This document shows positions 12,230-53,190 of a DNA stretch of 57,005 bases, piece by piece (positions within the stretch are counted from its first letter, which is position 1; each line of letters begins with the position of its first letter). Origin of the DNA: a virus. Lineage: Duplodnaviria; Caudoviricetes. The notes beneath the pieces were generated by a model that ran no database searches, was not told the DNA's origin, and saw nothing but the letters and a program-made list of their open reading frames with translations. The DNA lies in IMG/VR virus record IMGVR_UViG_3300000095_000003, positions 1 through 57,005 of that record; one strand, given 5' to 3'. A program made the translations under genes and the position numbers.

Positions 12230-13591
12230 TCAAATATTACTAATTGCTACTCCACCTGACTGTCTTGCTATTTTTAATAAATGGTCATTAGTTCCACCTA
12301 CAATAATAGTGTTCAATCTAATACAACCTAAATGTTCGAGTTTTAATGAAGTAGTATTGTCACATCCATCAGTAACTACTAACAACTCTGGTTTAGTTAG
12401 ATTAAGATTATTCTCTAACTTCTTATTGATTCGCTTAATAGCTTCTTTTGTACAATGGGCTATTGCAGTGCTTCCCTCATCAAAGTTTTCATATTTAATT
12501 TTACTCATTAGATTCCTTACTTCGGATAAAGAATCGGAAGATGCAGTATATTCCTTACCTAACTCATCATGAAAGAAAGAAAAACTTACTTCTGCTTCTC
12601 CTTCTAAGACTGCTTTGAGTCTATTCATTAACACTCCACCAGCTTTGAGGAAGTTATTACCAGAGTGCATTGAACTTGAACAATCAATTAAAAGATAAAG
12701 TAACATTCTCTTCTCTTGTTTAGAACATCTTTCTCTAATAGTTGATGTTCCAGATATAATTCTGTAATTGAGATAGTTTCGATTATATATAAGCTCTTCA
12801 GGATTTAATCTATCTATCTCACTAAAATCATTAATCGGACGATATCTAACTTCACTTCCATTTGGGTCAGGAGTTAATCTTACCTGTTTTCCAGTCCTTA
12901 ACTTAACTAATTTATCTAGATTTCTCTTAATTTGCAACATTACTTCTTTACCATTAAGCATATCTTCTGCCATTGATAGCTGGCTCTTATCACCTAGAGG
13001 CCCAGTAAACTCTAATAATTGCTTTTCGTGATAATCTAAGTTTGATATAGCTTCAAATGTCTTATTGAGTCTATCCGCTAATTTCTCCTGATTTTGATTG
13101 AAGATTGGTAGAATTTCCTCATCATCACCTTGTCTATTACTTGACTCTCCTCCTTCTTGAGTAGATAAGATTTTTACTAAAGATAGCGACTTTTCTAACG
13201 GAGAAACACCTGGAACATTACTAATATCAAGACTACGAACAAAGTTCTGTATATTTCGATGATAGTTAACTTCTTTAATAGCTGCTAACTCTCTAGCTTT
13301 AAATTTATCTTTTACATAATTATCATTAGAATCTCTTAGATACTCTCTTCCTTTATATATATATCTTCCATTACTATGAGTAGTTAAACACTTATCTAGG
13401 TAATTGCCTCTCCTCAAATTATCTACTATCTGATGTTCCGGAATAAATGAACCACCAGCTTGTATATTACATAAGTCCTCTACTAAATCTTTCGAGAAGG
13501 CTTTCAAACCTATTCTCTCAGCCATTTCTTGAATATCCCTTTGACTAGGAGGAAGATAATTGCTTGGAGGATTTGTTCTAGGTGTAGTCAT
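12230..13591 (-). CDS. VWA domain protein (ViaA/CoxE-like)
   Basis: MIDAS motif LLIDCSSSM, GSTAI, LLVVTDG; adjacent to MoxR ATPase. Confidence 0.85.
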   Translation of the reverse strand: MTTPRTNPPSNYLPPSQRDIQEMAERIGLKAFSKDLVEDLCNIQAGGSFIPEHQIVDNLRRGNYLDKCLTTHSNGRYIYKGREYLRDSNDNYVKDKFKARELAAIKEVNYHRNIQNFVRSLDISNVPGVSPLEKSLSLVKILSTQEGGESSNRQGDDEEILPIFNQNQEKLADRLNKTFEAISNLDYHEKQLLEFTGPLGDKSQLSMAEDMLNGKEVMLQIKRNLDKLVKLRTGKQVRLTPDPNGSEVRYRPINDFSEIDRLNPEELIYNRNYLNYRIISGTSTIRERCSKQEKRMLLYLLIDCSSSMHSGNNFLKAGGVLMNRLKAVLEGEAEVSFSFFHDELGKEYTASSDSLSEVRNLMSKIKYENFDEGSTAIAHCTKEAIKRINKKLENNLNLTKPELLVVTDGCDNTTSLKLEHLGCIRLNTIIVGGTNDHLLKIARQSGGVAISNI

Positions 13592-13661
13592 TTCTCTATT
13601 TTCCTTAATATTAATTGAGTCTTAGCTCTGATAATTAGTAGTTACCAGAGCCGATTCTTAG

Positions 13662-14801
13662 CTATTTCACATATCCTTTTGCAGATTTCAAAGCTTTATC
13701 AGAAAGCTCGATAACCTCATTTTGAAGATTATTTCTTTGTTCTGTTAATTGGTCAGGAACTCTAATATTAGAAACTTTCTCATTAATGTTGTCTAACTTT
13801 GCGGATAGATTTAATAGCATTGTACCTTTCTGAGAAGAAGGAATCTTTGAATTCCCATTATAATCAGTCATCTTTTGGGAAATTTCGTTCACTTCTTTTC
13901 TTGCTTTGTCTAACTGCGCGGTGGCTTCTCTAATGACTGTTACTCTCTCCAACTTAGCAGCTAAATCATCAAGAATACCATCAGTTCCAGAAATAAACTT
14001 AATAGCCCATAAATCGTCCTCATTAGCTTCTTTTCTTTCTTGAATAGTCGCTGAAGCTCTTAAAGAACTAAGACATACCATAGCTTGCCGTGGGCTAATC
14101 CATTGTCCCTTGCTATGAGCATCAGCAATCAGTCCAGCTAATACTTTTTTCAAATCATTAGAAATCGATATAGTTGAAGAGTTGTTATCCGCAGTTAAAA
14201 ATAAGTTATAGAAAGCCTCTTGATTATAAGAAGGCCATGCTACATTAATCTGCCAAGGAAATCTTTCAACTAAGGCTTGATAAGATGCTCCCATGTCTGC
14301 AATTTCCGCTGGATTACGGTTTGTTGCAGCTATTAACATTAAAGTCTTCATCTCATAAGATTGATGTCCATTATTTAAGCAACGAGATGTCAGAGTGTCT
14401 TTAAGAGCTAGTAGAACTGAGGGTGGAGCATCAAAAAGTTCCTCAAAAAGATAATTAGCGCAGTTTAAAAAGCAATTATCGGGTTGAAATTCTAACCGTG
14501 GATTTTCAGTACAGTTAAGAGCTTTCATGTTTATCCCGCCATACATCTTAGCTTCCGTCATACCTTCTCCGAAACTCTGGATACCAAAGTTCTGACCCTT
14601 AGATTGTTGTAGTGCCTTAAAGAGCGCTCTTACTATTTCACTTTTTCCGTGACCACCAGGGCCGTAAAATAAAAGATTAATAGGTTTTCCTGCTTCAATA
14701 GATGCTAAAGCTAGAGATAAAATTTCCTTTACTTCATCGGCATAAACAAAAGTCTTCAAAGCATCTGCAACTACTGGAAGGATACGATTAGAGTTAGTCA
14801 T
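13662..14801 (-). CDS. MoxR/RavA-type AAA+ ATPase
   Basis: NLLFYGPGGHGKS, LFEEL, IAATN, ALVERF, ISPRQ. Confidence 0.85.
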   Translation of the reverse strand: MTNSNRILPVVADALKTFVYADEVKEILSLALASIEAGKPINLLFYGPGGHGKSEIVRALFKALQQSKGQNFGIQSFGEGMTEAKMYGGINMKALNCTENPRLEFQPDNCFLNCANYLFEELFDAPPSVLLALKDTLTSRCLNNGHQSYEMKTLMLIAATNRNPAEIADMGASYQALVERFPWQINVAWPSYNQEAFYNLFLTADNNSSTISISNDLKKVLAGLIADAHSKGQWISPRQAMVCLSSLRASATIQERKEANEDDLWAIKFISGTDGILDDLAAKLERVTVIREATAQLDKARKEVNEISQKMTDYNGNSKIPSSQKGTMLLNLSAKLDNINEKVSNIRVPDQLTEQRNNLQNEVIELSDKALKSAKGYVK

Positions 14802-17006: not shown

Positions 17007-17579
17007 TTACACTTTCCTCTTATAAGACACTAGATAATCGTGCATTCCAAACCATTGAGGAATATCTATAGAATGTATTTTTTCCCATTCTTCTTCTAGT
17101 AAATCAAAGAAATTACCATCTCCAGTACATCCTTCAGAACCTTCTCCCACAAAAATTACTTGATTACCTTTATAAGCTTTTAGACAATCATAAGCAAAAG
17201 AAGTATTATAAGGTGGCCAACAAAGAAATAAAGTATGGTTAGGATAATTAGCTAATATATCAACTGAATTAATCTTAGTGATTTCGTACTATTGATTTTT
17301 ACACCAATGATTATCATAAGGGGATTCATCAAAAGCTATAACTTCTCCACCTGAATCACTTATTAGTTTAGACCAATATCCTGTACCTGCTCCCATCTCA
17401 ATTATTGGAGATTGAGATACTAAATAATCAATAGCTTCTTGATTTGGTATTGCCCATGAATAATGCTTAGTTAATGCAAACCTTTCTTTAGACCCCACAC
17501 AATGATAGAGGTCATTATATTTTCCTTGCTCAAACTCTTCTAAATATGGATTAGCTATTTTAATTTCAGTACAAATCAT
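17007..17579 (-). pseudogene. class I SAM-dependent methyltransferase-like gene interrupted by one in-frame TAG (17289-17291)
   Basis: YSWAIP, IIEMGAGTGYW before the stop; same frame continues YEITK...LFLCWPPY...IFVGEGSEGCTGD...IPQWFGMHD to TAA at 17007. Confidence 0.75.
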
Positions 17580-17591
17580 AGTAATTTCTAT

Positions 17592-17656
17592 AAGCCATCA
17601 TCAGAGTAGACATTATCTACTGACATCCTAACTGAGAAGCTAAGATGTTTCGGCTT
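17592..17656 (-). ncRNA. type II hammerhead ribozyme
   Basis: AAGCC-GAAA-CAUCUUAGC(loop)GUUAGGAUG-UC^AGUAGA(UAAUG)UCUACU-CUGAUGA-U-GGCUU: full core, three stems, GUC cleavage triplet. Confidence 0.9.
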
Positions 17657-17659
17657 TTA

Positions 17660-18556
17660 CTAGATATGTATTATTGCCCAATCATCAGGTATGCGTTTAT
17701 CTTGATTGTAGTAATCTGGATGGACATAGAAACGTTCACCATCCTCTGAATTACAAGATATGTATCCTTCTTTTCGTACATAATTTTCTAATTCGTTTTT
17801 CTTACTAGCAATTTCTGTTTGAAACTTCTTGATTGTTGAAATTAACTTTTCCCTTTCTACATAATCTACTTGTTTCTTTAAGGTCTCAATAACTTTCTCT
17901 TTACTTGATGAAAAAAACGCTCGGCTACCACTAATAATTGATTTACCTTCAAATTGTCCATCCGATTGAGTGATTTCAAGTTCATAACCTTTATACTCAA
18001 TTTTCGTTGGTTTTGAATACTCATCTACTGCTTCTTGAAAATAGCTCACTACTAAAGTGTCTAGATAGTGATACCCTGATTCCTCAAAATTAATAGCTTC
18101 ACATTTACCATGCCAAAGAATTTCATTTGTTGTCTTCTCCTTCTCTTGCCAAGCTTCTAAAGTAAAATCATTGTAAACCACAGAAAAAGTCTTCATAGTG
18201 TTCTCCAAATGTTTGTCTACTTTATCAAGAAAGTTATCAACTAATTCATCAAAATACTCATCACCTTCAAACTCAATCTCTTTACAAGCACCTACATAAG
18301 TTCGTAGCCCGTGATATTTAAACTCTAACGTAAATCCTTTATAGATTAACTTTGATGGGTTACGTGGACATCTCAACTGTTTCTTAGCTAGATATTCACA
18401 GAATGGAAAAAGAATTGACTCAATACTAAGGTGATTCTCTACACTAAATCCCACTTTCACACATTTAGCAGAATAACGCTTAGCATATTTCCCTCCTCTA
18501 TCGTGTTCTTCTACTTCTAGATTGAAAGTATCCATAACCAATGTGAAATTTCTCAT
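17660..18556 (-). CDS. protein with four HicB-like N-terminal-domain repeats plus C-terminal P.WAII domain
   Basis: repeats such as YKGFTLEF...GAC...ELVDNFLDKVDKHL and YKGYELEI...KKQVDY. Confidence 0.6.
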   Translation of the reverse strand: MRNFTLVMDTFNLEVEEHDRGGKYAKRYSAKCVKVGFSVENHLSIESILFPFCEYLAKKQLRCPRNPSKLIYKGFTLEFKYHGLRTYVGACKEIEFEGDEYFDELVDNFLDKVDKHLENTMKTFSVVYNDFTLEAWQEKEKTTNEILWHGKCEAINFEESGYHYLDTLVVSYFQEAVDEYSKPTKIEYKGYELEITQSDGQFEGKSIISGSRAFFSSSKEKVIETLKKQVDYVEREKLISTIKKFQTEIASKKNELENYVRKEGYISCNSEDGERFYVHPDYYNQDKRIPDDWAIIHI

Positions 18557-18909: not shown

Positions 18910-19284
18910 TTAAAAAATACGAACTACAGCCCAGTTAGGAAACTCAGAATTCTTATTCTTTTGAAATGCTTCTTCATACTCGGCACTAACTGCACATCGA
19001 TAACTGCCTTGATTACCTGGGATTGTATAGGTGTAAAAAGAATATCCTAGTCCTATTAAATACTCTTCTAGTAGATCTTGTTTTTCCCATACTTCTTGCT
19101 GATATTGAAGTATTTTTCCTAATGCTGTTCTCTTATCTACAAAATCTAGAAAGTTTGTGATTAGTGAACCAATATCTTCATATCTTGCGTAGTAACCAAG
19201 TTTTTCACATTCTCCCTTATAACTAGATTCCTTGAGAGTAATAATCAATTCGTAACCTTCATGAGAAAATTTAGATTGTGACAT
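18910..19284 (-). CDS. HicB-like repeat + P.WAII domain protein
   Basis: HEGYELII...YKGEC...LITNFLDFVD; FPNWAVV. Confidence 0.55.
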   Translation of the reverse strand: MSQSKFSHEGYELIITLKESSYKGECEKLGYYARYEDIGSLITNFLDFVDKRTALGKILQYQQEVWEKQDLLEEYLIGLGYSFYTYTIPGNQGSYRCAVSAEYEEAFQKNKNSEFPNWAVVRIF

Positions 19285-51606: not shown

Positions 51607-53190
51607 ATGTCAAAGAAAAAGAATGAACAGTTAAGCAAAATAGATCAAGAGATAGAGTTTCTACTTAATCAACAGAAATATCTTAATGCTTCTAATTCTC
51701 TATATGATTTCCTTAAAGTTGGGTTTGAACACGTTGAATCTACTCCATTTAGAGATAGTAGATTAGCTCAAGCGTTAAGCGAACATTTAGAAGCTGTAAT
51801 GGCAGGACAGATTAAACGACTCATTATCAATATTAGTCCTCGTACAATGAAAACTCTGTTAACTGGGGTTTATTTTCCTGCTTATTGGTGGTTGAAGAAA
51901 CCTCATCTTAAGTTTATTTATTGTAGTTATAGCTTTGATATTGCTAAGGAATGTTCTGAGCAATTTAGAAAGCTAGTTAATGATGATTATTACTCTCTAG
52001 TTCAAAATACTATGGAAGATCTAGTAGATAATCCTATAGAACTAATAAAAGATACTGAGAAAGTAATTTATAATAATTATCAAGGTAAGAGATATACTAT
52101 TGGGATTGGCGGTTCTATTACTGGTAAAGGAGCTGACGTAATCATTCTAGATGACCCATTAAAAGCTAGTGAGGCAGATTCTAAAAAAGTGGTTCTTAAG
52201 ACTAATAAATTTGTAGGAGGAACACTTATTTCTCGTTTTAATCCTTCTAGTGAAGAGAAAGCACTTATTGTTATTCAGCAACGATTAAGAGAGAATGATA
52301 CTTCTGGTTATTTAATAGAAGAGATAGGCGGATTTGATAGATTAGTTTTACCTTTGCTTTATACTGGTGTTTCTCCTAGTTCTACTAAATTGGGTTTTAA
52401 AGATTGGAGGAAAAAAGTAGGAGAGATATTAGTTCCTGAACTTCTTGATATAGAGACTATTAAGAAGATGGAGATTGAGTTTACTCCTTTCGAGTTTGAA
52501 CGTCAGTGTCAGCAAAATGTGAAGGGTACTGCTGGTAACGTTATCTCTAATAAATACTTCAAAGAATTTCAGAATGCTCCACCTTATGAGCAATATATTC
52601 TCGCTGGTGACTTAGCACAATCAGTAAATGACCAAGCTTGCTATACAGGATTAGTGATTTTTGGTATATATCAAAATAAGTATTATGTAGTAGATGTAGT
52701 AGAAAAGAAATTAGGTTTTGATGATTTAATTATTGAAGTAAAAAACCTACTAAATAAATATCCTTGTGCTTATAAAATTATAGAAAATAAAAGTGTCGGC
52801 CCTGCTTTAGTTTCTGCATTATCTCAGCAAATCCCTGGTTTTATTGCATTAGAACCTAGAGAATATGGGACAGATAAAGAAAGTCGATTAAAAGCTACTA
52901 TTCCTGCATTTATGTCAGGTAAGATATATTTTCCTACTAAAGAAACTTGTGAGAAGATAGTTACTCTAAAAGACCAATTAGTAACTTTTCCATTATGTAG
53001 GAATGATGATGTAATGGATGCTTTCTGCTATGGAGTTTTATGGTTAGAGAGAAATAGTAGAGTAGTAAGTAGCTCAGAAATACTTCAAGTTCCATCTGAA
53101 TATATAAAACAAAGAAGGAACATCTTTATTGATACTCCTTCTCCTAATATATTTGGTTCTACTAATACTTCTACTAGATTTAGATTTTGA
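51607..53190 (+). CDS. terL: terminase large subunit
   Basis: RLIINISPRTMKT, GGSITGKGADVIILDDPLKA, IQQRL, nuclease acidic residues AGDLA, IENKSVG, NDDVMDA. Confidence 0.92.
   Translation: MSKKKNEQLSKIDQEIEFLLNQQKYLNASNSLYDFLKVGFEHVESTPFRDSRLAQALSEHLEAVMAGQIKRLIINISPRTMKTLLTGVYFPAYWWLKKPHLKFIYCSYSFDIAKECSEQFRKLVNDDYYSLVQNTMEDLVDNPIELIKDTEKVIYNNYQGKRYTIGIGGSITGKGADVIILDDPLKASEADSKKVVLKTNKFVGGTLISRFNPSSEEKALIVIQQRLRENDTSGYLIEEIGGFDRLVLPLLYTGVSPSSTKLGFKDWRKKVGEILVPELLDIETIKKMEIEFTPFEFERQCQQNVKGTAGNVISNKYFKEFQNAPPYEQYILAGDLAQSVNDQACYTGLVIFGIYQNKYYVVDVVEKKLGFDDLIIEVKNLLNKYPCAYKIIENKSVGPALVSALSQQIPGFIALEPREYGTDKESRLKATIPAFMSGKIYFPTKETCEKIVTLKDQLVTFPLCRNDDVMDAFCYGVLWLERNSRVVSSSEILQVPSEYIKQRRNIFIDTPSPNIFGSTNTSTRFRF

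Follow-up and report, generated by a model that had tools for sequence, protein, structure and literature searches.

Does an 80-nt gap between two phage genes encode a self-cleaving RNA, and if so, what would cleavage do to the message that carries it? We addressed this question in a 57,005-nt stretch of DNA (the window) from the virus record IMGVR_UViG_3300000095_000003, for which an initial annotation had proposed a complete type II hammerhead ribozyme filling the gap. On re-reading the sequence, we found every core nucleotide and all three stems on the coding (minus) strand at 17656-17592, and the stem lengths, GUC triplet, coordinates, and counts given in that annotation were all correct. 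In minus-strand order, the element reads AAGCC-GAA-A-CAUCUUAGC(U)-UCUC-(A)GUUAGGAUG-U-C / AGUAGA-UAAUG-UCUACU-CUGAUGA-U-GGCUU, where the slash marks the predicted cut. Stem II has 5 bp and stem I has 6 bp (7 with a U-G pair), while stem III consists of 9 bp together with the A15.1-U16.1 pair and one inner U-A pair. The core agrees with the hammerhead consensus at all positions (C3 U4 G5 A6 N7 G8 A9, G12 A13 A14, A15.1-U16.1, and H17), with one U inserted after A9. [quoted passage not shown] This fold places the predicted cut between 17622 and 17621, which would give the downstream message a 42-nt leader (17621-17580). The coordinates of the element and its flanking genes are collected in Table 1.

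TABLE 1 Features of the hammerhead element and the two flanking genes in the window
Feature	Position	Strand	Basis
Upstream gene, 298 aa, no family match	17660..18556	-	No profile matches; 49%-identical homologue in L001
Whole type II hammerhead, stem II 3' strand to stem II 5' strand	17592..17656	-	Descriptor, R1 and R2 models, MFE fold
Stem II 3' strand AAGCC (11.5-11.1), partner GGCUU 17596-17592	17652..17656	-	Sequence, covariation in subclass
Core G12 A13 A14 (GAA)	17649..17651	-	Sequence; invariant in alignments A2 and A4
Stem III hairpin, A15.1 (17648) to U16.1 (17623), 10-11 bp, loop UCUC/UUCUCA	17623..17648	-	Sequence, descriptor, fold
C17, predicted cleavage 3' of this base (17622/17621)	17622	-	Position from hammerhead consensus
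Stem I hairpin AGUAGA-UAAUG-UCUACU, 6 bp or 7 with U-G	17605..17621	-	Architecture and loop as in 20 other unique hammerheads
Stem I strands AGUAGA and UCUACU; loop UAAUG	17621-17616 and 17610-17605; 17615-17611	-	Sequence
Core C3 U4 G5 A6 U7 G8 A9 (CUGAUGA)	17598..17604	-	Sequence
Extra U between A9 and G10.1	17597	-	Sequence
Stem II 5' strand GGCUU (10.1-10.5)	17592..17596	-	Sequence, descriptor
AUUA, candidate pseudoknot partner of loop I UAAU	17582..17585	-	Sequence
Downstream SAM-methyltransferase-like gene, 190 codons, in-frame TAG 17291-17289	17007..17579	-	phrog_19090 E 1.2e-12, weak Methyltransf_23

We searched both strands of the whole 57-kb window with a hammerhead descriptor specifying the core (CUGANGA, GAAA, and UH), minimum lengths of 4, 3, and 3 bp for stems I, II, and III, and zero or one inserted base after A9. 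The descriptor matched one site only, 17656-17592. Across 150 dinucleotide shuffles of the window, the relaxed descriptor matched 13 times, spread over 9 shuffles (approximately 0.09 matches per shuffled window), and the stem lengths observed in the element were reached in none of the 150. Furthermore, the three-way junction was both the MFE and the centroid fold in contexts of 65, 88, and 141 nt, with z-scores of -3.6, -3.0, and -2.4; shuffled sequences that folded equally well numbered 0 of 200, 0 of 200, and 2 of 200, respectively.

Searches with Rfam were silent. A 351-nt segment with the element returned no match at the gathering threshold and none at E ≤ 10, the whole window returned no ribozyme family at gathering and none at E ≤ 1, and a search of the virus record with the type II model RF02276 gave no match. 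The element therefore falls short of the RF02276 gathering score (37 bits), which is an operational criterion and not a defining property of the class. As a control, we applied the same model to 12 loci of the type II family described below: RF02276 recognized nine of them, only three of which reached the 37-bit cut-off, and gave no match for the remaining three. Among 18 loci of the subclass to which the element belongs (see below), none reached the cut-off, five gave subthreshold matches, and 13 gave no match. Because none of these 18 subclass loci reached the cut-off, we interpret the silence of Rfam as a gap in sensitivity and not as evidence against the hammerhead call. The Rfam score is the only type II criterion on which the element fails; core, topology, covariation, and context all fit the class.

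We placed the element among its relatives by scanning viral sequences for patterns. The first pattern, GCCGAAA-N28-58-CTGATGATGGC, recovered at least 116 viral loci, 109 of which fit the type II descriptor among the matches listed. These loci make up the large phage family reported in Perreault 2011 (PMC3088659), more than 100 viral members of which have GCCGAAAC ... GUC ... CUGAUGA-U-GGC in common with the element. Among the matches listed, the triplet is GUC in 103 of 107 unique members, stem II has 3 bp in 98 of 107, hairpin I spans 21 to 24 nt in 102 of 107, and stem III reaches 10 bp or more in just 8 of 107. Canonical members have their pseudoknot strand one base past stem II, with a Shine-Dalgarno motif and the ATG behind it. 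The element in the window shares with the type II family (RF02276) the permuted topology, the catalytic core, the GUC site, and the G10.1-C11.1 pair, as well as placement on the coding strand in an intergenic space that runs from a stop codon to the following start. It departs from the family in several respects: its stems are AT-rich, it receives no Rfam score at all, its hairpin I is only 17 nt long, its stem II has 5 bp, its stem III (10 to 11 bp) is longer than that of most members (usually 6 to 8 bp), and it lacks the canonical pseudoknot of 4 to 6 bp beginning one base past stem II.

From 106 loci of this family, with the window left out, we built a covariance model (R1). R1 scored the element at 40.4 bits, compared with 7.7 bits for the next best site in the window and 14 to 21 bits for three pattern-matching loci that are not hammerheads. 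Four true hammerheads missed by the strict descriptor scored 55 to 67 bits. Because R1 and the subclass model described below (R2) share search-pattern letters with the candidate, part of each score is circular; roughly 20 bits of the R1 score are not.

Two further viral scans defined a group closer to the element. The pattern AGCCGAAA-N-CTGATGATGGCT returned 25 loci, and the pattern GTC-N6-TAATG-N6-CTGATGAT returned 67. In the latter scan, pairing between the two N6 segments that would form stem I was bimodal: all six positions paired in 16 loci, five paired in none, and four or fewer paired in 51. Fifteen of the 16 fully paired loci proved to be full type II hammerheads in which GAAA, stem II, and stem III are all in the right place (14 called by script and one, L306, by eye). 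The sixteenth, L370, was rejected as a chance match. A pattern scan of genome contigs gave 24 matches, of which five are genuine loci, found in metagenome-assembled genomes (MAGs) of Methylomirabilota, Acidobacteriota (two), and Patescibacteria and in one Scandinavium MAG. The other 19 were dismissed as chance matches inside conserved coding genes (10 in Veillonella and 9 elsewhere).

The resulting subclass consists of 20 unique relatives in addition to the element in the window (e.g., L293, L295, L301, L320, and L365, with MAG copies L375, L378, L380, and L381). In all 20, stem I has 6 bp and a U is inserted after A9; the stem I loop is UAAUG except for one copy with UUAUG. With the window included, an A lies directly 5' of stem II in 21 of 21 sequences, and stem II has 4 bp in 19 of the 21; the fifth, A-U pair is found in L052 and the window only. 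The element thus has the full set of subclass features, namely, a 6-bp stem I, UAAUG, the extra U, and a stem II of 4 to 5 bp preceded by A. It also shares the GAAAC...GUC arrangement and the property of being seen poorly or not at all by Rfam. In contrast to its relatives, it has the most AT-rich stems and no Shine-Dalgarno motif downstream.

Covariation among the relatives backs the helices. In an alignment of the 21 sequences, window included (A4), 99.7% of 292 cells are paired, a figure that is partly by construction because members were selected for pairing, and double changes occur in 11 of 14 pairs. When partners were slid by one to three columns as controls, 28 to 40% of cells paired. 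Double changes within the subclass affect all six pairs of stem I and three of four pairs of stem II, and the unselected evidence for stem I pairing is the bimodal distribution in the third scan. A covariance model of the subclass with the window left out (R2) scored the element at 61.6 bits, compared with 11.5 to 20.8 bits for pattern-only look-alikes and 14.6 bits for the next best site in the window. A scan with the exact stem I retrieved the contig of L285 only, whose stem I differs from that of the window by a single compensatory pair (AGUUGA/UCAACU versus AGUAGA/UCUACU). L285 has a long stem III too, and its neighboring genes are unrelated to those of the window. In the running text of the literature searched, we did not find this subclass singled out; it may already be depicted in the figures or supplements of Perreault 2011 or in the Rfam seed alignment.

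The initial annotation had described the extra U between A9 and G10.1 as a known natural variant, and this proved to be the case. At least 100 phage type II hammerheads carry it, though the search pattern required a U at that position, and in the Rfam alignment two family members with high scores have "ug" inserted there. The CChMVd (+) hammerhead likewise has a base inserted at this position, where, according to passages of a review (PMC3705267) citing De la Pena & Flores 2001, U raised trans-cleavage 3- to 4-fold. That ribozyme is a type III viroid hammerhead in which the natural base is A and tertiary contacts form between loops, and its context and biology are unrelated to those of the window. 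In the element studied here, the extra U is probably neutral or beneficial.

The proposed tertiary contact fared less well. As passages of two papers describe (PMC3088659; PMC6155905), type II hammerheads usually use a pseudoknot between loop I and the 3' tail, and the annotation had suggested that loop I UAAU pairs with AUUA over the initiation region of the downstream gene. The complement does exist: AUUA at 17585-17582 starts 6 to 7 nt past stem II and could form four A-U pairs with the loop. As stated, however, the contact is unsupported, since ATTA or CATT lies within 30 nt past stem II in just 3 of 20 same-loop relatives (L293, L364, and L375), which is about the chance rate for a 4-mer. 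AUUA occurs at offset 5 past stem II in L293 and L375 and at offset 6 in the window, so a pseudoknot may form in a subset of the subclass. Short-loop relatives with the loops UAGAG, ACAUA, and AAAUA have no complement in the tail when inspected by eye. Parts of Perreault 2011 (PMC3088659) report many hammerheads without recognizable tertiary contacts and also a pseudoknot-type construct that became less active when stem II gained a pair. Two points speak against high activity of the element, namely, its fifth stem II pair and the lack of a demonstrated tertiary contact.

Sequences around the element could also pair in other ways. In the MFE fold, AUUACU and the start codon have the last part of the upstream ORF as their partner. 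We rejected this outer helix, which joins the upstream stop region to the downstream start region (-9.5 kcal/mol), since it was matched or beaten by 69 of 2,000 shuffles and by 69 of 587 natural segment pairs. In three of the 20 other subclass members (L052, L293 at 401-455, and L329), AUCAG, which is complementary to the core CUGAU, lies within a few bases past stem II. The MFE folds of L293 and L320 sequester the core in such a tail hairpin and do not show the active fold. The hairpin could represent an off state or a postcleavage structure. The element in the window has no core-masking AUCAG tail.

The window has approximately 30% G+C and a CheckV completeness of 19%, which indicates that it is a fragment of a larger phage. 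No cultured phage has a terminase more than 29% identical to the one in the window (51607-53190). The genes around the hammerhead are all on the minus strand. The upstream gene ends in TAG (17662-17660) followed by an in-frame TAA (17659-17657), and the TAA abuts the first base of stem II. The product of this gene (298 aa), a 124-aa ORF (18910-19284), and a 351-aa homologue (L002, 1398-2453) share repeated modules of the KGYELEI / EGYELII type; the 351-aa homologue has one more module, and the module proteins have no family match. At some distance on the minus strand (12230-14801), a MoxR-type AAA+ ATPase (PF20030 bpMoxR, AAA_5) lies beside a weakly matching von Willebrand A protein, a pair that is unusual as phage cargo.

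Downstream, the methyltransferase-like gene starts at ATG 17579-17577, and its frame continues past the in-frame TAG to 17007; the ORF up to the TAG amounts to the N-terminal half of the methyltransferase-like protein. In the related phage (L002), the homologue is intact at 190 aa, and a conserved Trp takes the place of the TAG (TGG to TAG). We considered recoding of TAG and rejected it: open frames gain no more length when TAG is taken as sense than when TGA is, 25 of 77 long frames stop at TAG, and the window contains no tRNA. Because there is no evidence of recoding and no suppressor tRNA in the window, the in-frame TAG probably reflects a simple nonsense change or a variant of the assembly. 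No Shine-Dalgarno motif precedes the start of the gene, whereas most neighbors have AAGGAG-type motifs, and no promoter-like or terminator-like site was predicted in the 80-nt gap.

To evaluate conservation at the site, we searched with the flanking proteins and found one related viral contig, in which these proteins are 49% and 83% identical. This related phage has a 47-nt gap at the same site without a hammerhead, and R1 found no match in the whole 151-kb record. The gap (L001, 3556-3602) aligns weakly with the stem III and cleavage-site region (TCTTAG..AGGAnGTnAnTA) of the gap in the window (17580-17659). The score of this alignment was reached by 129 of 2,000 shuffles, so the resemblance is marginal at most, although the gap may hold a decayed hammerhead remnant. 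Among 160 loci with methyltransferase homologues (80 metagenomic and 80 viral, 477 kb), we found two unrelated type II hammerheads, neither of them beside the methyltransferase gene. Given the hammerhead-free nearest relative and only two unrelated hammerheads in 160 loci, the element is sporadic, without site-specific conservation. Sporadic occurrence is usual for phage hammerheads.

We regard the hammerhead motif in the gap as real, and we consider it likely that this uncultured phage, rich in AT, encodes there a self-cleaving type II ribozyme on the coding strand, which would most likely lie within a polycistronic message and cut it between two genes, uncoupling the cistrons. Polycistronic transcription is the most likely arrangement because the flanking genes are co-oriented and the gap has no promoter-like or terminator-like site. 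Once the three-way junction had folded, the 2'-OH of C17 (17622) would attack the next phosphate. Passages of the hammerhead literature describe this reaction as a general acid-base transesterification at C17 that yields a 2',3'-cyclic phosphate and a 5'-OH. The upstream product would end in the long stem III hairpin with the cyclic phosphate, and the downstream product would carry its 5'-OH on A17621, directly at the stem I hairpin and 42 nt before the methyltransferase-like ATG. Since the 5-bp stem II alone would link the products, they should separate readily. The two cistrons would then be physically uncoupled with hairpin-capped ends, which could give them different stability or translation. 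Co-transcription is plausible, and cleavage in vivo and an effect on the fate of the mRNA are inferred. Type II hammerheads flank genes in prophages, according to parts of Perreault 2011 (PMC3088659), and in D. vulgaris three type II hammerheads were seen by cyPhyRNA-seq to cleave in vivo, as described in a portion of that study (PMC8782182). Passages of two reviews suggest an mRNA-cutting role for bacterial and phage hammerheads and call it unproven (PMC6765202; PMC6155905).

Other explanations account for some of these observations. One is that the element resembles the hammerhead consensus by accident and shares no ancestry with ribozymes, which would fit the silence of Rfam, the lack of syntenic conservation, and a relaxed descriptor that fires at a measurable rate in shuffled windows when very many windows have been scanned. 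Yet the motif is complete and statistically improbable, with stem lengths that no shuffle reached, and it belongs to a covarying phage subclass. Features that had played no part in the initial annotation also fit, including UAAUG on a 6-bp stem I, the A preceding stem II in every member, and the C15.2-G16.2 pair, and the R2 score is approximately 40 bits above the pattern-only controls. We therefore regard a chance origin as extremely improbable. A true hammerhead could still be a functionless passenger or relic, a cassette acquired or being lost in front of an inactivated gene and without a role in the phage. The closest relative has no hammerhead at the same site, the downstream gene is interrupted by TAG at a conserved Trp, and L285, the closest relative of the ribozyme itself, lies among unrelated genes, which suggests mobility. 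In addition, the window has a single ribozyme match in 57 kb, whereas phage hammerheads are frequently clustered (in parts of PMC3088659, and in L293 and L288). Against this explanation, long neutral drift would be unlikely to leave every core nucleotide and all 21 to 23 stem pairs untouched, as they are here, and the family typically occupies such a position on the coding strand, directly behind a stop and shortly ahead of a start. We judge a relic to be unlikely.

A different kind of function would follow if loop I paired with the AUUA before the ATG, making the active fold and ribosome access interdependent and coupling cleavage to initiation. This proposal has in its favor the existence of the complement, the usual reliance of type II hammerheads on a pseudoknot between loop I and the 3' tail (in passages of PMC3088659 and PMC6155905), the presence of AUUA at nearly the same offset in L293 and L375, and a start that, unlike those of its neighbors, has no Shine-Dalgarno motif. 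However, four A-U pairs are cheap in a 30% GC genome, few relatives with the identical loop have a complement within 30 nt, and the canonical strand starts one base past stem II and not 6 to 7 nt away. The same AUUAC also pairs with the stop-codon region in the MFE fold, a pairing that is itself no better than background (69 of 587 controls were at least as stable). Coupling of this kind seems improbable to us, and cleavage that simply uncouples the two cistrons is the reading we prefer.

Hammerheads of this type, placed between genes, have been described in phages since 2011; the copy in the window, from a large uncultured phage rich in AT, adds one clean but ordinary example. What phage and bacterial hammerheads do biologically is described as an open question in passages of two reviews (PMC6155905; PMC6765202), and the case of the window does not answer it. 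Because the subclass lies below or outside the Rfam model, annotation pipelines will miss its members. The subclass also offers a compact natural set for asking how a type II hammerhead stabilizes itself without the usual pseudoknot. Somewhat speculatively, its members could be structurally distinct type II hammerheads in which an undescribed contact other than a pseudoknot joins loop I to the open end of stem II; being largely missed by covariance models, they would cause phage hammerheads to be undercounted. We hold this view tentatively and find it more doubtful than probable. Type II cleavage leaves a hairpin on the end of both products, and this could explain a preference for this permutation in the cutting of polycistronic phage mRNAs.

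The scans also brought up clusters of ribozyme-like elements. L293 (IMGVR_UViG_3300048609_000018) has three within approximately 720 nt, at 54-115, 401-449, and 721-772: an RF02276 hammerhead (40 bits), a hammerhead of the UAAUG subclass, and a twister-P1-like element (30.7 bits, cut-off 67.2). L288 has three type II hammerheads within approximately 780 nt, and in L327 a type III hammerhead match (43.7 bits, cut-off 48.5) lies near a type II element.
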